Origin: Promethearchaeati archaeon SRVP18_Atabeyarchaeia-1
GTDB taxonomy: Archaea; Asgardarchaeota; Atabeyarchaeia; Atabeyarchaeales; Atabeyarchaeaceae
Assembly (NCBI GenBank): GCA_037308085.1
Contig: CP147779.1
Span: 416,001-480,000 of the forward strand
Reading direction: 5' to 3'
DNA length: 64,000 nucleotides
The position numbers and the translations under genes are program-made. Below are positions 9,842 through 49,753 of the stretch, piece by piece. Under the pieces are notes generated by a model. That model was not told where the DNA came from, ran no database searches, and was given only the letters and a program-made list of their open reading frames with translations. Position 1 is the first letter of the stretch; the number at the start of each line of letters is the position of its first letter.

Positions 9842-10552
9842 TTGAGTGTTAGCTTCGAGAAACACCAGATTGTCGTTCCAGGCGAGTTGCTCGCCGTTGG
9901 AAAGAAATTCAGGCTCGGGACGGGCACATTCAGAGAAGGCGACAAGTTGTTTGCCTCTATAGTAGGACTCGCGGAGATCGGTGGCGATTTGATCCAAGTG
10001 GTTCCCCTGGAGGGAGTCTACATCCCGAAGATCGGTGACGACGTCATAGGCAAAATTGTCAATGTTACACTATCTTCGTGGAGAGTTGATATCAAATCAC
10101 CTTACTACGCTGTTCTTCAAGCATCCAATTTCCTACAGAGAAGGACCGACGTGGTCATGGATGACCTTAGGAAATACCTGGATATCGGAGACGCAGTCTT
10201 CGTGAATGTAGTGGAATTTGACAGAACAAGCCCACCAATGGTATCAGCCAGGGACAAGGGTTTCGGCAAATTGAAGGGTGGCACGATACTTGATGTCCTG
10301 CCAGCCAAGATCCCCAGGTTGATTGGTCGAGGGGGATCCATGATAAACATGATAAAGGATGAAACCAAGTGCAGGATCCTGGTCGGACAGAATGGAAGAG
10401 TCTGGATATCAGGTGAAAAATTCGAGATTGAAGATCTCGTTGTAAGAGTTGTGAGAAGGATCGAGCGTGAAGCTCATACATCAGGTTTGACTGATAGAGT
10501 GAAGGAAATGATCAAAACAGAAATGGCTACCACAGGAGGTTCAAAGAGTTGA
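9842..10552 (+). CDS. rrp4: Exosome RNA-binding subunit Rrp4
   Basis: [16 protein letters not shown] (S1), KH motif [19 protein letters not shown]. Confidence 0.95.
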
Positions 10553-30658: not shown

Positions 30659-31582
30659 TTGAGGACTAACACAGTCCATCCGAATTTGAGGACTAAGTAC
30701 TTCCTTGCAATTGACACGAAAGAAAAAGCGTATTGGCTCGGATTTCTGTTCGCCGATGGCTGTATCATAAGACACCCCAGAACAATACAGATTCAACTCA
30801 AACTTAGACGAGCCGACGAAGAAACCATTGACAGATTCTGCGAGTGTCTCAGGCTTGAAAAGGGCAAAAAGGATTACGTTCGAGAACGCGAAAAGGATGG
30901 AACAATATCAGAGAAGATCAGAATCAGATTTGCCAGCAGAGAAATGGGAAGGAGTCTCCTAAAGCACGGGTTAGAGTTTCGGAAATCGAAAATCATTGAA
31001 TATCCGAGATTACCCCGTCGACATCTGGAGCTTGCGTTTCTATTGGGATACTATGATGGCGATGGACTGCAGAATACGACAAGAATCAACTCCGGCAGCG
31101 TCCGATTTCTGGAACAGGTCAAGGAGAGATTCAACTTGCCTTACAAAATCCAGTTGAATAAACGCAAAACCGTATTTCATGGCAGAGAGATAGAAGGCAC
31201 AGAGTACTACATGTGCTTGGGCCCTGAGCTGTTCAATGAGATGATGAGAGACTATGCAGGAAGCATGCCTAGGAAACGTTGGTTCCCATGCGATTCAAAG
31301 GAAAAACTGCGCAGGCACCGTGAGGCTTGCACATCCGAAATGACTCAGAGAAGAAGAGGACTGCAGAAGGATTGGAGAGCCATCACGAGGGATAAACTAG
31401 AAAGATTAGTATGGCAAATGCCGTTAGCACATATCGCCATTAGATACAACGTCAGTAATGTGGATGTTATAGCGAAAAAGTGTGAGAAGCTTGGTGTTTC
31501 CAGACCAGAACATGGTTACTGGCAAAGACAATACTGGATAAACCGGAGATCCTTAGGAAAGAGTTCAATACAGAATAAATAG
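30659..31582 (+). CDS. Free-standing LAGLIDADG-like endonuclease
   Basis: AYWLGFLFADGCI and AFLLGYYDGDG motifs; C-terminal HTH-like tail. Confidence 0.85.
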   Translation: MRTNTVHPNLRTKYFLAIDTKEKAYWLGFLFADGCIIRHPRTIQIQLKLRRADEETIDRFCECLRLEKGKKDYVREREKDGTISEKIRIRFASREMGRSLLKHGLEFRKSKIIEYPRLPRRHLELAFLLGYYDGDGLQNTTRINSGSVRFLEQVKERFNLPYKIQLNKRKTVFHGREIEGTEYYMCLGPELFNEMMRDYAGSMPRKRWFPCDSKEKLRRHREACTSEMTQRRRGLQKDWRAITRDKLERLVWQMPLAHIAIRYNVSNVDVIAKKCEKLGVSRPEHGYWQRQYWINRRSLGKSSIQNK

Positions 31583-32144: not shown

Positions 32145-32400
32145 AAAGCAGCCGCTCTCTTCTGCAACGAGAAAATTCCACCATAAAGCTTATAATATGT
32201 GCGACGCTCCTAGCGTAAACTTGCACAGGTTTTTCGCAGCGAATCCCGAATAGCGTCGACCCCAACAGCGGTTAAAAACCTGTGGATGAAGGGTTGTTTT
32301 TCCACTGCGAAAAATCAGTGGCAGGCAGAAATGAGGACCCGAAAAAACCGACAGCACGGCTGCCGGAAATTTGGGCCTGATGTGGGCTCGAAGAAAAACC

Positions 32401-32446
32401 CTGGAACCATGACATAAGTTAATCCCCCGAACAACATATTTGCGGC
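32401..32446 (+). promoter_or_regulatory. 5' strand of the 16S pre-rRNA processing stem (BHB)
   Basis: CATG-ACA-TAAGTTAATCCCC pairs with GGGGTTGGCTTA-CATG-ATT at 35125-35143. Confidence 0.75.
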
Positions 32447-32809
32447 TAATATAAACTCCCATGAAACCGGTTGATCCTGCCGGACCCAACCGCTATCGGA
32501 GTGGGACTAAGCCATGCTAGTCGAGCGCCTCGGACTATGGCGAGGCGCGGCGTACGGCTCAGTAACACGTGGTTAACCTAACCTCCGGACGGGGATACCT
32601 CCGGGAAACTGGAGCTAATACCCGATAGGTGAATAGTTCTGGAATGGCTTTTCACCCAAACGGCTTTGACACCATGTTTGCCAACGTCGCCAGAGGATGG
32701 GACCGCGGCCGATTAGGCTGTTGGTGGGGTAACGGCTCACCAAACCGACAATCGGTACGGGCCGTGAGAGCGGTAGCCCGGAGATGGGGACTGAGACAAG
32801 GCCCCAGGT

Positions 32810-32846
<37 letters not shown>

Positions 32847-32985
32847 TGGAAACAGCGACGGGGCTACTCCGAGTGCCGTCCGCTAAGGGCGGCTTTTCCA
32901 CAGTATAAAAAGCTGTGGGAATAAGGGGAGGGCAAGGCTGGTGCCAGCCGCCGCGGTAAAACCAGCTCCTCGAGTGGTTGGGATG

Positions 32986-33016
<31 letters not shown>

Positions 33017-33198
33017 TTGTAAGTCCTTGGCTAAATCCGTCAGCCTAACTGACGGCGTGCTGAGGATACTGCTTGGCTTGGGGGCGAGAGAGGCTGAGGG
33101 TACTACTGGGGTAGGGGTGAAATCCTATAATCCCAGTAGGACCACCTGTGGCGAAGGCGTTCAGCTGGAGCGCGCCCGACGGTGAGGGACGAAAGCTA

Positions 33199-33232
<34 letters not shown>

Positions 33233-33333
33233 TAGCTGTAAACTATGCGGGCTAGGTGTTGGAGCGGCCACGTGCTGCTCCAGTGCCGAAGGGAAGCCGT
33301 TAAGCCCGCCGCCTGGGGAGTACGGCCGCAAGG

Positions 33334-33375
<42 letters not shown>

Positions 33376-33481
33376 AAGCCTGCGGTTTAATTGGACTCAA
33401 CGCCGGGAAACTTACCGGGGGCGACAGCAGAATGAAGGCCAGGTTGACGACCTTGCTTGACAAGCTGAGAGGTGGTGCATG

Positions 33482-34392
33482 AGGCCTTCAGGTCGTCCTA
33501 AAACTCTTCGCGGCTTCCTCTAACCTCTCTACGATGTGACTCATAGTCGTCTCTGTAGGAAGGCTGTTGACAAGTGTTGGCGAGGGAGTTCAAATGAACT
33601 CGCTTGTGCCTTTCTTAGGAGGGGATCATGACGATCGTTGACGACAAGAGGAAGTATGTTCTGGTCAAAACGAAGAGTCTTATCCGTCGTCTGCGCCAAC
33701 AAGACTGTGGGGCTCTGCAAGGAGTATACAGGCACGTTGATGACTTGGTTGAGTGGAATACCTTTCGAGACTGGGCGTATAGAGGCTGCTTCCGGATGCC
33801 TCTCAACGTGTTCGCAAGGTTGAAGAAGACATATGAGATCAAGGACGTGCCGCGAGTGGTCACAGAGACTCAATGGTACGCAGAGACACGCAAGAGAGCA
33901 GCAAGAATAATGCACGAACGCCACCCCCATAAGGAGTGGCTATCGCGAGCAGCGAAGGCTGGCGGTGAAGCTGTAAAAGCCAAGTACGGGATCAGGTATC
34001 TGACAAAACTCTCTGGATCTGCCATACATTCATCAGCCAGATACCGATACAAGGATGGATATGGAATAGAATACCGTAGCCGCCTGGAACTGCGGGTTGC
34101 GGATTTGCTGCGCAAACATGGATACAAATTCGATTATGAACCGGAGATAGATGGATACATCCCTGACTTCCTAATCAACCACACAATAATCGAGGTTAGC
34201 GGATACTTTCGCGACCACGATTATCTTTCAAGACTCCAGATCAAACTTGCAGACCTAACCACTAAGGGTTGGGATATCATCGTTGTATGTGAACCGCGAA
34301 ACAAAGCTGCTCTCCAGCAGGCGCTCGTAGGAATACGAGTCAAGGCAATTATGACAACGGATGAGTTCGGACGATGGCTGTAGGTCTGCGAA
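33482..34392 (+). mobile_element. 911-nt BHB intron in 16S (about E. coli 1057/1058) carrying an ORF
   Basis: Central helix TGCA/TGCG, bulges TGA and AAG; excision restores GGTGCATGGCCGTCG. Confidence 0.9.
33628..34383 (+). CDS. Intron-encoded PD-(D/E)xK-like endonuclease
   Basis: C-terminal YRS.LE..VA..L...G....YEP....YIPDF....IIEVSG; basic N-terminal half. Confidence 0.7.
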   Translation: MTIVDDKRKYVLVKTKSLIRRLRQQDCGALQGVYRHVDDLVEWNTFRDWAYRGCFRMPLNVFARLKKTYEIKDVPRVVTETQWYAETRKRAARIMHERHPHKEWLSRAAKAGGEAVKAKYGIRYLTKLSGSAIHSSARYRYKDGYGIEYRSRLELRVADLLRKHGYKFDYEPEIDGYIPDFLINHTIIEVSGYFRDHDYLSRLQIKLADLTTKGWDIIVVCEPRNKAALQQALVGIRVKAIMTTDEFGRWL

Positions 34393-34849
34393 GCCGTCGT
34401 CAGTTCGTGCCGTGAGGTGTCCTGTCAAGTCAGGCAACGAACGAGACCCCTGCTTACAGTTGCTACCAGGCTTAGAAATGGGTCTGAGCACACTGTAGGG
34501 ACTGCCGGCGATAAGCTGGAGGAAGGAGGGGGCCACGGCAGGTCAGTATGCCCCGAATCCCCCGGGCCACACGCGGGCTGCAATGGTTGGGACAATGGGT
34601 TCCGACCCCGAAAGGGGAAGGTAATCCCGAAACCCAATCTCAGTTGGGATCGAGGGCTGCAACTCGCCCTCGTGAACATGGAATCCCTAGTAATCGCGCG
34701 TCATCATCGCGCGGTGAATACTGTCCCTGCTCCTTGCACACATCGTGTCTAGGAAGCGCTTAGCGCGAGTGTAGACCGCCCGTCGCTCCACCCGAGTCGG
34801 GTTAGGGTGAGACGTAGCCTTTTTGGCCACGTCGAACCCAGGCTCGGCA

Positions 34850-34880
<31 letters not shown>

Positions 34881-35341
34881 AGACTCCGTAGGGGATGCTT
34901 GTGATTGTGATGGGGTGGCATCCGCCTTTTGCTTTGTATGCAACGACTTTGTTGCGGCTTGAGGTGTTCTCGTAGGTTCCGTGTTGCGCGTCTGATGTGT
35001 TTGGGATGCGTTTCCGAGGTTTCGTTTGTCTCCTTGGAGTCCGGTAAGGGGAACCTGCGGCTGGATCACCTCCTATGAATCCCCACCCGTTAGGGTGGGG
35101 TTCTTCCGCCGCGATTGTTGCCGAGGGGTTGGCTTACATGATTGTTGTGGGGTTTCGAGCCCGCCTACCTGCTTCTCACTGCTCATTTTGTTTTCCTGGT
35201 TATCCGATTAGCCATGTTATTGTCTAGCATTTGCTTTCTCTTTTCTGGATGGCTTCGGATTCGGAAAGCTGGGCGTGTTACTGTAGTTGGTGACCTTTAA
35301 TGTCATCATCCATGACTAGATGATTGTGAGCTACGAACTCC

Positions 35342-36025
35342 TTGAAGGGTGTGGGCTTTCTGGTTCAATTTGATAAGATTCTGTTGAGGACCGATCAGTC
35401 GGCGGAGGCAACTCCATCCATCTGCTATCTTGCAGGTACGTTCAGAGATGGTTGCATATCAACCCAGTGGCAGATCAAGATCAAGCAGAAATCGAGGCAG
35501 TATCTTCTCAATAAGATCATACCAATACTAAACCAAGAATCCAATCTCCATTTGACAGAGAGAGCCGTCTATTTGCAGGCTGACGCAAATAGGCGCTTTT
35601 ATGTCGCGTTCAAGAGAAAGAAGGCATGGGGGCAGCTCAGGAAAACTTTCAGCATCCCCCCAGACAGTGTAAGTTAGGGAACGCCGCCGTTCGTCAAAAA
35701 ACTAGACAAAGCCCTGTTGCGTTTCTATATACAGGGCTTCTTTGACGCTGAAGGTGGAGTGCCCCGTAACCCGATGAGCTCCAAATTGTACATCTCATTC
35801 ACCCAAAGAAACCGTGAATCCCTAGAGTTTCTAAGAAACAAGCTGTATTCCGAGTGGAATATTGTCTCGGGCAGGCTGAGGATTTCTGATAACAGGTCCC
35901 ACTGCTGGAGGTTCACGATTGCTGGGCTAGGCTCGATCAAACGATTCATGACAGAGATTGGAACGGAACATCCATCTAAGGAGAGAAGATTCACTATCAT
36001 TTCGAATCTGCTTAAAGGCTGGTAG
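35342..36025 (+). pseudogene. LAGLIDADG homing endonuclease with in-frame TAG at 35675-35677
   Basis: YLAGTFRDG (ORF 35342-35677) and YIQGFFDAEG (ORF 35717-36025) are in the same frame, separated by one stop. Confidence 0.8.
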
Positions 36026-36145
36026 GGGAACCTGCGACTGGATCACCTCCTACGAAGTCCCGCCCAAATGGGCGGGCTTCCTTTCTGCCGCATGTGTTGT
36101 TTGGGATCAGCTTACATGATAGCCAACGGGTTTTGGAGCCTACCG
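36022..36145 (+). repeat. Diverged second copy of the 16S 3' end and downstream trailer
   Basis: GTAGGGGAACCTGCGACTGGATCACCTCCT, a GC hairpin and GCTTACATGAT, mirroring 35044-35145. Confidence 0.85.
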
Positions 36146-36300
36146 AATCTCGTCTTCTCTGATATTTCGTATTGTGTCCTCTGCTATTCCTGTAGGCGGA
36201 TTGTTGCACTCCGATGTGGCTTGGACAAGATCGAGCTAAGCTGGAAAGCAGCCAGTGAAGATGGTCTGGACTCTGCCGTATTTGCCGCGCGCGAGATCCT

Positions 36301-36969
36301 CTATTCGAAGTACACGAGAGCGAAAGCTGTTGCCATGACTGCCATTCCTACGATTAGCTGTCTGAGAGTGATGCGGGAGGCCAGTGCAACGAAGAGAACG
36401 CCAAAACCTATCATGCTGACGACTACTACAAAGTAAAACGGCCTGAGAATGTCGGGTTTTCCAATTCCATAACCAAATAGCGTCCCAGTTATGGAGTGTA
36501 TAATCAACCATAGCACACCGAGGAATATGAGGATCAGTCCGAGTCCCGCGGCGATCCCCCTTGCGCTCCCTCTTCGGCCCCATCCCCACTCGTTCCGCTT
36601 TCTTTCGTCGGGCTCAAGAAAATCTAGTCTCAACCGCGCATTCCCACCTCTGATCACTGTCAACACGAAATCATCCCTAATGATGATCTTGATGGGCGCC
36701 ATATATATGTAGAGCGGCATCTGGTCGGGTGGATCATCATAGTCCCTAGATAATTGAGAGAGAGAGAGAGAGCCATCAAGAAGGTCATTATGTTGTATGG
36801 AATGTGTCCGGGAAGAATCAGGGACAAACCTGCGGTGAAGGAACTCATAGAGCGAATTATGGTGGAGGCGGGCGATACAATAGACTGGCTCGATGAGCTC
36901 TGGGGAAAAAAGGCACCTAGATAGGCGCTGGTAGCGCTGGACATCCATGAATGCGTCCATGTCCGTCAC
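36301..36969 (-). CDS. Possible membrane protein, perhaps decayed
   Basis: Three hydrophobic segments in the C-terminal half; N-terminal half uncertain, with a (GA)n run at ~36756-36772. Confidence 0.35.
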   Translation of the reverse strand: MTDMDAFMDVQRYQRLSRCLFSPELIEPVYCIARLHHNSLYEFLHRRFVPDSSRTHSIQHNDLLDGSLSLSQLSRDYDDPPDQMPLYIYMAPIKIIIRDDFVLTVIRGGNARLRLDFLEPDERKRNEWGWGRRGSARGIAAGLGLILIFLGVLWLIIHSITGTLFGYGIGKPDILRPFYFVVVVSMIGFGVLFVALASRITLRQLIVGMAVMATAFALVYFE

Positions 36970-37382
36970 CCTTATTACAGCTTCAACTCATACCTGTACT
37001 AGGGGTGAGAGTGAGACACGGCGAAATGCCCGAGATGTGGAGAATGGATGAGAACTGAGACTCGAACTGAACCGCTTCTCGGATTGAGTAAGAAGCGTCC
37101 AGCGTTCCCTAGGACAAAAAGACGTGACGTGTGTCCGCATTGCCACTACAGCACCATGTGGATCTAGTCGTAATAGGTTGCGCCTCTCCGCGAGAATGCC
37201 CTAGGAGGGTGCGCCCTGTTTCCTGTTGTTGTCCTGGTCGTTTTTCGTTGGGGTGGCTTGCTTTCTGTTTGGGGCCTTTTCCTGTGTGTGGGGGTTGGTT
37301 CTTTTCGGTGGGGGCTTCTAGCCGAACATTATTTAAGCTTGTGGAAGCGAATGCTTTGTTTGGAATACTTGTCTTGGCGCAG

Positions 37383-38036
37383 ATGGGAGGGTGTTTAGCT
37401 TTGGCTGCTGGTGGTCTGCATGAGGCTTTAAATAGGTGCCCCAGGTGTGGTGCTGGGATGGAGTATCTTGGGAGGTCGGTGGCGTATTTGGAGTCTGGAG
37501 GCATCTCCGCCTTGTTCGAGGTTTATGTGTGCAGCAGCTGTCTTACGGTGCAGTTGGTTTCTTTCGGTAACGAGAGGGCCTATCGAGATCTTGTCAGGAA
37601 AAATGTTGGGCCATCATCGTTTCTCAAGCCGTGCGTCAGCTGTGGGAGCAGGATTCCCATAGCGTCGGAGGAGTGCCAGTTCTGCGGATCAAAGCAGCCG
37701 CCTTGGGATGAGGCTAAGAGGGGGAGGACGCAGGCTGAGCAAGCCTTGATGCAGAAGCTGGCTGAAATTATGAGAAGGAAGGCTGACGCGCGACTGCAGG
37801 GTGCGGCGCTCTCTAGTGGAGGAGGTGAGTCTGCGCCCGAGTTGGAGGCGGCGCCTCAGATTGAGGTGAAAGAGAAGCCAGGAGAATGCATGGTCTGCCA
37901 TAGCCCAGTGCTGAAGAAGGATGATGTGATTACTTGCCCTCACTGTGGAGGCGTTGCCCACAGGGTTCATATGCTTGAGTGGCTGCATGTCAAAGGCACC
38001 TGCCCCGCGTGCCATCAGCCGATAGCCCATCCTTAG
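37383..38036 (+). CDS. Zn-ribbon protein with C-terminal RING-like domain (start uncertain)
   Basis: CPRC, CSSC, CVSC, CQFC, then CMVC-x11-CPHC-x4-H-x2-H-x3-W-x6-CPAC. Confidence 0.75.
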   Translation: MGGCLALAAGGLHEALNRCPRCGAGMEYLGRSVAYLESGGISALFEVYVCSSCLTVQLVSFGNERAYRDLVRKNVGPSSFLKPCVSCGSRIPIASEECQFCGSKQPPWDEAKRGRTQAEQALMQKLAEIMRRKADARLQGAALSSGGGESAPELEAAPQIEVKEKPGECMVCHSPVLKKDDVITCPHCGGVAHRVHMLEWLHVKGTCPACHQPIAHP

Positions 38037-38183
38037 CTTGGGCTGCTCCACCCACAGTTGGCGGCGATGGCTGCCCTACCCATTAGTCCTTTGCCCTCTA
38101 TCTGCCAGCGACTTATAGAAACCTATAATTCTATCTGAAGTGACAACTTACCAGCAGAGAGTTCGCTGGAGAATGAATGTTAG

Positions 38184-38420
38184 ATGCCGAAGCCTAAGGT
38201 GTCAATAAAGTTTTGTGGTGTCTGAGGTTCGAGCGCTGTGACAAGGAAGCTTGTGTCGTCTGTGGTACCGGGTCTTAAGAGCAAGGCGGACGTGGAATTG
38301 GTCAGGAAGGATGGTGCGCATCCTGAGATTCTCGTTAACGGCAAGAAGCTGAAGGCTGACTACGGCGACTTTGAGTCTTTGAAGAAGTCTGTGATAGATG
38401 CTGTGGACAAGGCGAAGTAG
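38184..38420 (+). CDS. Small SelW/Rdx-like selenoprotein (CxxU; TGA at 38223-38225)
   Basis: MPKPKVSIKFCGV-U-GSSAVTRK continues in frame into ORF 38238-38420; SECIS-like hairpin follows the stop. Confidence 0.8.
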
Positions 38421-38866: not shown

Positions 38867-42207
<3,341 letters not shown>

Positions 42208-42641
42208 TGAAATTCCTTGGTTCGGGTGAAATTGGGTTTCTGGGGACGTTCTGGGGGTGGAGCCTAGTGCACGGCTGTTGCCGCTTCCGTTTTCTGCAGT
42301 TGCCTCTCTTGAGTACGTGTGACCATATTTCTCAACAGAGATTCCTGTCTGAGAGGAACCAGATTTACTCGAACAGTTTTCCTTGGCGCTCGAGAGTTTG
42401 GATTTACCGCACTGTGTCAGAGAGGGGGGAGAGAGTGTGTAACGGGGAAGCGCGTTCATCCACACTGATGTCAGGGTGGCTGGATGCATGAGAAGTACGG
42501 CGGTAACCACAACCCATCTTGATGGTGCTCTGCTTGAACTCTCCATCCTTGGCGCCAAATGAGAATATTCGAAAAGTATATCTGGTTGGTGCTCCAATAC
42601 CGCTTCTTGATTTGATGATATGGTGATGGAGGGAATGGTCT

Positions 42642-48859: not shown

Positions 48860-49753
48860 TTGACAGAACGATGGTACAAGCAGTGGGAAAGATGCACGGT
48901 TCACCCAGATCTGAAGGTTAAATACTTCAGCAATGTCGACAATAGAGAGAAAGCGTATTGGCTCGGAGTTCTCTACTCTGACGGCTGCATCTCGAAGCAT
49001 CATACATCAATACAAATTCAGATTGAACTTAATCAGGGCGACGAATATGTCATTGATAGGTTCTGTGAATGCGTCGGACTCGATAAAACTAGGAAAAAAC
49101 ATCGAATCAGGGAAGCGGGGACAGAATCAGTCACAATCTGTTTCATTTGCAAGGAAATGGGCAAAGACCTTTTGAAACATGGATTAAAGTTCAAAAAATC
49201 AAGAACCATCGAGTACCCGAAATCACTAGGTACACGAGATCTGGAACTAGCGTTTTTACTAGGATATTACGACGGTGATGGAGCACACCATACGACAAGA
49301 ATCACGTCTGGAAGCATCAGATTTCTGAAGCAGGTTAGGAACAGGTTTAACTTGCCGTACAAGATTCGTAGAGAGGAAGGCGGTGGGGAGATCTGTGGGA
49401 GAAAGATAAGAGGGACAAGGTATCGCATGGTTCTAGGTGCAGAGCTATTCAATGAGATGATGAAGAATTATGCCGATAGTATGCCCAGAAAACGTTGGTT
49501 TCCCTGTGATTCAAAGGAAAGACTACGCAGATCCGCTGAAGCTTGCACCCCTGAAATGAATCGAAAAAGGAAATACCAGCAGGGTAGTTGGAGAGCTATC
49601 ACAGAGAATGAACTAGGAAAAATGGTTTGGGAAATGCCCTTGGCACACATTGCCACCAAGTACGATGTCCGTGCTCCCAATGTAGCGAAAAAGTGCCAGA
49701 GATTAGGTATCTCTAGACCAAGACGAGGCTACTGGGCAGGACGAAAATCCTAA
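48860..49753 (+). CDS. Free-standing LAGLIDADG-like endonuclease, paralogue of 30659-31582
   Basis: AYWLGVLYSDGCI, AFLLGYYDGDG; shared ELFNEMM, SMPRKRWFPCDSKE and MPLAHIA blocks. Confidence 0.85.
   Translation: MTERWYKQWERCTVHPDLKVKYFSNVDNREKAYWLGVLYSDGCISKHHTSIQIQIELNQGDEYVIDRFCECVGLDKTRKKHRIREAGTESVTICFICKEMGKDLLKHGLKFKKSRTIEYPKSLGTRDLELAFLLGYYDGDGAHHTTRITSGSIRFLKQVRNRFNLPYKIRREEGGGEICGRKIRGTRYRMVLGAELFNEMMKNYADSMPRKRWFPCDSKERLRRSAEACTPEMNRKRKYQQGSWRAITENELGKMVWEMPLAHIATKYDVRAPNVAKKCQRLGISRPRRGYWAGRKS

Follow-up and report, generated by a model that had tools for sequence, protein, structure and literature searches.

Why does a single 16S ribosomal RNA (rRNA) gene carry two 3′ ends, and why does the broken gene of a homing endonuclease lie between them? 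Both questions are raised by the window analyzed here, a 64,000-nucleotide (nt) stretch of Promethearchaeati archaeon SRVP18_Atabeyarchaeia-1 (assembly GCA_037308085.1, contig CP147779.1, positions 416,001 to 480,000) whose coordinates are used throughout unless stated otherwise. The genome (G000) is one closed contig of 2,808,651 bp and one of two complete Atabeyarchaeia genomes, finished by manual curation with its topology checked by Nanopore and PacBio reads (Valentin-Alvarado et al. 2024, PMC11291895). The explanation that we favor, with a probability of about 0.7, is that a homing endonuclease gene (HEG) formerly encoded in an intron now forms a cassette at the 3′ end of the only 16S gene and works in the manner of collaborative, or trans, homing.

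Layout of the duplicated 16S tail

Rfam places the sole 16S gene at 32464-34889 (model SSU_rRNA_archaea) and the 23S gene at 38867-42208. The 16S end at 34889 is wrong, as it falls within an intron of the bulge-helix-bulge (BHB) type. Exon 2 of the 16S gene, which holds the loop and 3′ strand of helix 45 and the anti-Shine-Dalgarno sequence, is present twice. The features of the locus are listed below; ORF stands for open reading frame, G002 is the sister genome (Atabeyarchaeia-2), and L029, L030, L031, and L033 are metagenomic relatives with the same layout.

32382-32446 (+), 16S leader, the 5′ strand of the processing stem (CATG 32408-32411, bulge ACA 32412-32414, TAAGTT 32415-32420), which cofolds with both trailers
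34873-34880 (+), end of 16S exon 1, TAGCCGTA, the 5′ strand of helix 45, with the central BHB strand GCCG at 34875-34878, placed by Rfam and the table of BHB pairings
34881-35047 (+), ORF-less BHB mini-intron of 167 nt at Escherichia coli position 1513/1514, recognized from BHB geometry and comparison with G002 and present in L029, L030, and L031
35048-35074 (+), 16S exon 2, copy 1, the probable functional 3′ end, 100% identical over 33 nt to G002, where it abuts exon 1
35075-35175 (+), trailer T1 (hairpin 35081-35100, GGCTTA 35131-35136, CATG 35137-35140, bulge ATT 35141-35143), identified by leader cofold and trailer profile
35176-35401 (+), spacer upstream of the HEG with a promoter-like motif, TTGGTGACCTTTAATG, at 35287-35302 that is kept in five lineages
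35326-35372 (+), 47-nt interspersed repeat between the promoter-like motif and the HEG start, absent at this place from L029, L030, L031, and L033
35402-36025 (+), LAGLIDADG pseudogene with two motifs, delimited by Pfam and by alignment to intact relatives of 207 amino acids
36025-36051 (+), exon 2, copy 2 (pseudo 3′ end), which carries G>A at 36037, lacks a BHB with exon 1, and is degenerate or lost in relatives
36052-36150 (+), trailer T2 (hairpin 36059-36076, GCTTA 36110-36114, CATG 36115-36118, relaxed loop ATAG), identified by leader cofold

The duplication spans exon 2 and ~100-150 nt of trailer (35048 to ~35175 and 36025 to ~36150) and encloses the LAGLIDADG gene. Two blocks of direct repeat can be aligned, 35047-35103 with 36024-36080 (81% identity over 57 nt) and 35125-35155 with 36103-36133 (71% identity over 31 nt), at a spacing of 977-978 nt. 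Genome-wide, exon 2 occurs only in these two copies and the trailer only twice, together with the complementary leader, which is the only reverse-complement match of the trailer profile in the genome; T2 is the best match to that profile. An earlier reading made from the sequence alone (the sequence-only reading) had described a 16S terminal exon that occurs twice, and the repeat alignment and the genome-wide count agree on this point, as they do on the positions of both copies; its other descriptive elements hold as well. Copy 2 overlaps the LAGLIDADG stop, the TAG at 36023-36025 sharing the first G of the copy. Each copy is followed by a GC hairpin, with compensatory differences between the two, and then by GCTTA-CATG-AT (35132-35142 and 36110-36120), and the repeat homology runs through the GCTTACATGAT box. 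The pseudo 3′ end carries CCTGCGAC. Its G>A at 36037 (G at 35060 in copy 1) is E. coli position 1526, the partner of C1509, and produces the C·A mismatch in helix 45.

Intact relatives of 207-222 amino acids are 70-83% identical to the read-through protein of the window. The contigs that share its layout are the following.

L029, JGI 3300038663, 20 kb, syntenic with the window and with valS upstream
L030 and L031, JGI 3300035643
L033, Logan SRR12953085

L029 and L030 show the order exon 1, mini-intron of ~170 nt, exon 2 with T1, spacer, intact HEG of 207 amino acids, and exon-2 copy 2 with T2. L031 has the same order and keeps T2 with exon-2 copy 2 deleted, and L033 starts in exon 2 and stops just past the ORF, with exon 2, T1, the spacer, and the HEG visible. 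The GGGGAA loop of copy 2 is gone from L029, which reads GACCGA there, and from L030, which reads CTAA, and T2 is kept in L029, L030, and L031. A metagenome scan with the HEG alignment returned only distant homologues (≤41%) and not the close clade, and a search of 400 Asgard genomes gave no close HEG relative outside G000. From these comparisons, the layout looks like a lasting way of life for the selfish gene and neither an artefact nor private to one strain.

An assembly artefact would place collapsed short-intron and HEG-intron haplotypes in tandem. The two copies do differ by ~20-30%, as strain alleles might, and the genome is metagenome-derived, but the assembly is closed and long-read-checked, and contigs obtained independently from different samples with different assemblers have the same tandem order (in full in L029 and L030, minus exon-2 copy 2 in L031). 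A haplotype collapse is therefore very unlikely, with a chance near zero. A second explanation treats the repeats as attL and attR of a mobile element integrated at the 16S 3′ end, as occurs at tRNA genes. In this locus, foreign DNA is bounded by direct repeats that cover an RNA gene's 3′ end, and in L029 one more trailer copy follows a 4.6-kb block of genes. Between the repeats, however, the HEG is the sole gene and the only ORF with a family match, an integrase is missing, the left edge of copy 2 is an intron/exon junction with a remnant of the intron 3′ BHB strand, and the repeats are 68-81% identical instead of exact. Integration of this kind has little chance of being the explanation.

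Intron origin of the endonuclease gene

HEG homologues reside inside a BHB intron between GCCGTA and GGGGAACC, followed by a single exon 2, in L034, L153, L062, L158, and L160. Their identity to the window HEG is 54% in L034, 50% in L153, and 35% in L062 (Aenigmatarchaeota). A LAGLIDADG intron is therefore present at this site in relatives, and, given where the homologues reside, this intron is the source of the HEG. The ORF runs into the 3′ BHB strand in the in-intron loci and in the window alike. Of the 19 nt that immediately precede copy 2, 13 match the mini-intron 3′ end in register, and the end of the L034 intron matches the mini-intron end at 14 of 20 positions. Maximum-likelihood analysis groups the eight free-standing Atabeyarchaeia-like HEGs in a clade (98/98) whose sisters are in-intron. 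The sequence-only reading had proposed a relic of a HEG-containing intron at ~1513/1514 that was displaced by an incoming allele; the in-intron homologues and the 13/19 remnant uphold descent from an intron, and the intact, selected HEGs that share the layout contradict a one-off displacement in one strain.

Two further branches separate the HEG from the intron. L155/L156 have a 38-nt canonical BHB mini-intron at the site and a HEG that starts 270 nt past the 16S end, with diverged direct repeats around it, and in L159 the intron at the site is 201 nt long and ORF-less, and the HEG lies 170 nt past the 16S end. To judge from these contigs, the two branches combine an ORF-less intron with a downstream HEG independently. 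In all loci whose contig reaches the site (window, L029, L030, L031, L155, and L159), an ORF-less intron occupies the position that harbors the intron-encoded relatives of the free-standing HEG. In L033 and L154 the HEG is downstream of the 16S end, and the contigs stop short of the intron site.

The ORF between the exon-2 copies matches LAGLIDADG_3 in Pfam (E = 5e-9). Both motifs, YLAGxFRDG and GFFDAEGG, are invariant in six aligned sequences and retain their catalytic acidic residues. The reading frame is not intact in this genome. As the sequence-only reading had seen, it is interrupted by an in-frame amber codon (35675-35677), which replaces a conserved Trp (TGG>TAG); in addition, GCG (35402-35404) occupies the place of the ATG of intact relatives. 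Pyrrolysine read-through of the amber codon was considered and rejected; the genome lacks PylS, and TAG is therefore a stop. The loss of ATG, the TGG>TAG change, and the 47-nt insertion indicate that the HEG of this genome is dead. Overall dN/dS (the ratio of nonsynonymous to synonymous substitution rates) between the window HEG and that of L029 is 0.14, and because this value is still low the inactivation appears to be recent. Only this copy is decayed among the compared relatives of the same layout: the ORFs of L029, L030, L031, and L033 are all intact, with pairwise dN/dS of 0.09-0.17 at dS of 0.6 to >2, which reaches saturation. The low ratios show that the HEG is under purifying selection while at this position.

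A structural model of the intact relative P0002 (predicted local distance difference test score, pLDDT, of 72.7) has the two-domain alpha-beta-beta-alpha-beta-beta-alpha fold. Its top structural match is I-DmoI (E = 1e-7, template modeling (TM) score 0.6-0.7), and I-Tsp061I is among the top matches (E = 5e-6, TM 0.58); a search of PDB sequences with the HEG gave no match. The HEG resembles these monomeric LAGLIDADG enzymes of archaeal rRNA introns in being a two-motif monomer of ~200 amino acids. Unlike them, it has a different predicted target and a pseudogene copy in the window, and sequence identity is only 16-20%.

The motif TTGGTGA[CG]CTTAAATG upstream of the HEG is conserved in all five lineages, and the remaining spacer can be aligned only between the window and L029. 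The promoter-like motif (CCTTTAATG box) is found 58-60 nt before the ATG in L029, L030, and L033. The tRNA genes of this genome have [ACG]TTAAA boxes upstream, and because the conserved HEG motif resembles them we infer that the HEG has its own promoter. The same motif and the ORF end (with 36012-36025) form a perfect BHB in the window (TTGG/CTGG, bulges TGA/TAG, CCTTTAA/TTAAAGG; 4/4 and 7/7 pairs). L029 retains six of the seven inner pairs, L030 and L031 have lost the 3′ strand, and the L033 contig ends before that point. An independent, conserved BHB intron formed by the HEG cassette was rejected as a general feature because L030 and L031 do not keep the 3′ strand, and the BHB of the cassette is read as a fading remnant of an old intron junction. 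A decayed copy of exon 1 upstream of the HEG was also considered; the similarity of 35150-35345 to the 16S end and to the leader is within the range of shuffled sequences, and such a copy was retained as a possibility only. Relatives, with a consensus of GCAATTGGTGA, do not share the GTAG at 35283.

The 47-nt repeat upstream of the HEG has 13 genomic copies and a core, GAGCTACCAAC-CCTTGAAGG-GTTGGCTTC, that forms a hairpin. The other copies are at genome positions 1749311, 2029834, 2527104, 2790584, 812294, 1575029, 1962157, 1971905, 1156641, 1365362, 1878831, and 1604386; some extend into a common 150-nt block, and others have unrelated flanks. The loci have no Rfam match, and the repeat is possibly a miniature mobile element, or else a motif of structured RNA.

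Distant HEG homologues (26-41%) occur in Patescibacteria (Candidate Phyla Radiation), among them L036, L037, L041, L048, L059, L077, and L087. They end ~90 nt before GGATCACCTCC, and GATATAGTCCATGCC...ACATGAACAAGG then follow; these homologues are probably located in inserts ~10 nt upstream in bacterial 16S genes. On this distribution, the HEG family is apparently tied to the 16S 3′ end across domains.

Predicted splicing and processing of the 16S 3′ end

The mini-intron has the canonical BHB of two 3-nt bulges on opposite strands (TAA and AAG) separated by a 4-bp helix. The central helix pairs GCCG (34875-34878) with CGGT (35042-35045) at 4/4 positions, and the inner helix pairs GACTCC (34882-34887) with GGAGTC (35036-35041) at 6/6. 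The BHB cleavage rule, a cut after the second bulge base, would remove 34881-35047 and gives exactly the 167-nt intron starting at 34881 of the sequence-only reading. The junction to copy 1 is GCCGTA joined to GGGGAACCTGCGGC, and the predicted spliced product, GCCGTA followed by GGGGAACC, equals the sequence of intronless G002 and 20 other relatives. The 16S gene of G002 is without introns and reads GGTAGCCGTA directly followed by GGGGAACCTGCGG at the uninterrupted site. Eight other loci have introns at this junction whose BHB geometry is the same while the inner helix differs in sequence (for example GGTCCT/AGGACC, AACTTT/AAAGTT, and AGCTGG/TCAGCT), which supports the motif on comparative grounds. 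The real 16S end is most likely copy 1, with splicing deduced from structure and comparison.

Alternative splicing would join exon 1 to either copy, with 1144 nt removed when GCCGTA is joined to GGGGAACCTGCGAC, and would yield two 16S variants that differ at position 1526. In this genome, copy 2 has an intact helix 45 loop and anti-Shine-Dalgarno sequence. The junction of exon 1 with copy 2, however, has only 2/4 central and 1/6 inner pairs, and no structural basis for splicing into copy 2 is seen because of this; the product would carry the C·A mismatch in helix 45, and copy 2 is without GGGGAA in L029 and L030 and absent from L031. Splicing to copy 2, as entertained in the sequence-only reading, is contradicted by the weak pairing and by the degeneration or deletion of copy 2 in relatives, and we give it a very slim chance.

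The interior of the mini-intron (34890-35030; for example GCAACGACTTTGTTGCGGCTTGAGGTG ... CGTAGGTTCCGTGTTGCGC) can be aligned with its counterparts in L029, L030, and L031, including lineages in which the HEG spacer cannot be aligned, which hints at constraint on the mini-intron RNA itself. A C/D-box small RNA in the mini-intron was rejected since the box-like strings of the window are not conserved in L029, and comparison of the interior with the HEG cassette gave no significant similarity (z between −1 and 0.5).

Cofolding of the leader with T1 gives −90.8 kcal/mol and a canonical processing-stem BHB (CATG/CATG, bulges ACA and ATT). The leader also forms a long stem with T2 at −86.3 kcal/mol, in which the BHB is relaxed, with 4-nt AUAG opposite three unpaired leader bases (a 4 × 3 loop). 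Both trailers can thus pair with the single leader, and copy 2 has the weaker BHB, as had been predicted. In L029 there is a third trailer copy, T3 (10318-10400 of the contig), 4.6 kb downstream of T2 and beyond three minus-strand genes (an amino-acid permease, an Na/H exchanger, and a 174-amino acid ORF); the 16S trailer seems especially prone to insertions accompanied by duplication. The L029 leader cofolds at −85.1 kcal/mol with T1, −88.1 with T2, and −74.3 with T3, compared with −58 ± 4 for shuffled controls. An A>G change in the L029 leader (UAAGUU>UAGGUU) is matched in both T1 and T2.

These pairings bear on an alternative in which both trailers are used, the leader pairing with either T1 or T2, and cleavage of the leader-T2 BHB releases and circularizes a long pre-16S RNA that also carries the HEG, exploiting EndA and RtcB for expression or RNA stability. 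The complementarity of T2, and of T3 in L029, to the leader far above shuffled controls is in line with it, as are the matching of the leader change by T2, the conservation of the trailer core across lineages with an unalignable spacer, and the circular 16S intermediates reported for Asgard archaea of the same wetland, including an Atabeyarchaeia 16S (PMC12918454). T1 is transcribed first, however, and has the better, canonical BHB, and the HEG carries a promoter-like box of its own. In L030, the two repeats are identical for their first 75 nt and ~60% identical after that, a pattern of gene conversion from the selected T1. T3 is conserved in L029 although it lies behind three convergent genes; therefore, conservation does not require use. 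For T2, we favor homogenization and HEG-level selection for a downstream homology arm as the likely causes of conservation, and regard the alternative processing route as unlikely.

A proposed homing route for the separated cassette and intron

In the explanation that we favor, mature 16S rRNA would consist of exon 1 and copy 1. The tRNA splicing endonuclease would cut out the 167-nt intron at its BHB, exon ligation would restore helix 45, and the leader-T1 stem would release pre-16S rRNA. The ancestral unit of intron, exon 2, and trailer would have contained the HEG, and a tandem duplication, or unequal recombination with an ORF-less allele, would have left an upstream unit with the 16S function and a small intron and a non-functional downstream unit with the HEG. 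A live HEG would most likely cut intronless 16S alleles at the predicted target, 1513/1514, and would be copied in together with the mini-intron by means of homology arms in exon 1 and on the T2 side. Repair from exon 1 to T1 would copy the mini-intron alone and repair from exon 1 to T2 would copy everything, with the mini-intron protecting the host's own 16S gene from cleavage. In this genome, the recent death of the HEG would make copy 2 and T2 a relic, kept like copy 1 partly by gene conversion.

Several points weigh against this account. The use of copy 1, splicing, and the non-use of T2 were deduced from structure and comparison. The complementarity of T2 to the leader, here and in L029, and its tracking of the leader change could mean that T2 has a function instead of being a passive relic. 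The free-standing layout is known from few lineages, all of them metagenomic; flanking duplications are not seen in L159; and the similarity of the segment upstream of the HEG to the exon-1 end is not statistically significant. A broader account, to which we give somewhat less than even odds, holds that a helix-45-specific LAGLIDADG family has repeatedly left its BHB intron and persists free-standing and under selection in the 16S trailer, driving itself along with an ORF-less protective mini-intron in an archaeal BHB counterpart of collaborative homing, that the tail was duplicated in the Atabeyarchaeia-like clade, and that the two or three trailers, which look functional, may route HEG RNA through EndA and RtcB.

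The closest functional parallels are the collaborative, or trans, homing systems of phages, free-standing F-CphI, paired with the ORF-less group I intron of psbA, and T4 MobE, paired with the defunct I-TevIII intron of nrdB (PMC6083498, PMC2790892). As in these systems, a free-standing HEG is the neighbor of a gene whose ORF-less intron occupies the site used by intron-encoded relatives, the two are inherited jointly, and the intron would protect the host copy. Unlike them, the present locus has an archaeal BHB intron spliced by host enzymes without a ribozyme, a 16S host gene, and a LAGLIDADG HEG; its evolution was apparently out of the intron, its cleavage activity is a prediction, and the cassette lies between tandem rRNA trailer copies (this holds for the Atabeyarchaeia-like clade and, to a weaker degree, for L155).

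By the account of Nakayama 2003 given in PMC4496867, I-PogI is an archaeal 16S LAGLIDADG HEG, and an ORF-less BHB intron is mobilized by a HEG encoded nearby. As far as that account goes, the two loci share an archaeal 16S gene, a LAGLIDADG HEG, and an ORF-less BHB intron with a HEG encoded elsewhere nearby; I-PogI is described there as intron-encoded within 16S, whereas the HEG of the window is outside the rRNA, past its 3′ end. The 13 intron loci of Thermoproteales 16S genes, of which 1391 is the last, do not include site 1513/1514. Archaeal rRNA processing stems with a BHB are cleaved by EndA and circularized by RtcB (PMC7714728, PMC12918454). The leader and T1 of this locus likewise form a long stem with a canonical BHB around 16S, but one leader faces two trailers (three in L029), for which no description was found in the literature searched. 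Nor did the searchable literature yield a description of an ex-intron HEG in a duplicated 16S tail.

The proposed arrangement implies that a HEG and its intron can separate yet travel together in archaea, where host enzymes splice. This bears on the persistence and spread of ORF-less archaeal rRNA and tRNA introns, of which these Asgard genomes hold an extremely large number. With an intron 29 nt ahead of the anti-Shine-Dalgarno sequence and a pseudo 3′ end, the locus will mislead rRNA callers, 16S surveys, and annotation, and the geometry of one leader and two trailers is a natural experiment on the choice of pre-rRNA processing stem in archaea.

Other inserts and ORFs were seen in and around these genes. 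The 16S gene of L029 (1792-4554, against window 32464-35074) has exons 92-98% identical to those of the window and a different set of introns, with extra inserts of ~140, 60, and 675 nt and ~150 nt left where the window has a 911-nt intron (33482-34392). Judging by this pair, rRNA introns turn over fast within the group. The ORF of the 911-nt intron (33628-34383) is not LAGLIDADG and has a weak Phage_endo_I match (E = 0.003, below the cut-off). Inserts in helix 45 or the 3′ end are found in other Asgard genomes, in G037 (L011; 32 nt after GGGGAA), in G059 (L020; two inserts, after GCCGTA and after GGGGAA), and in G054 (L024; one insert between GGATGGA and ATCACC). Two more free-standing ORFs of ~300 amino acids in the window, 30659-31582 and 48860-49753, match LAGLIDADG_3 (E = 2e-6 each). 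Between T2 and a conserved spacer block (38208-38387), a segment of ~2 kb (36150-38200) that is missing from the 940-nt 16S-23S spacer of G002 holds two ORFs, one of 222 amino acids on the minus strand without a family match and one of 301 amino acids on the plus strand with weak matches to prokaryotic RING-finger families.

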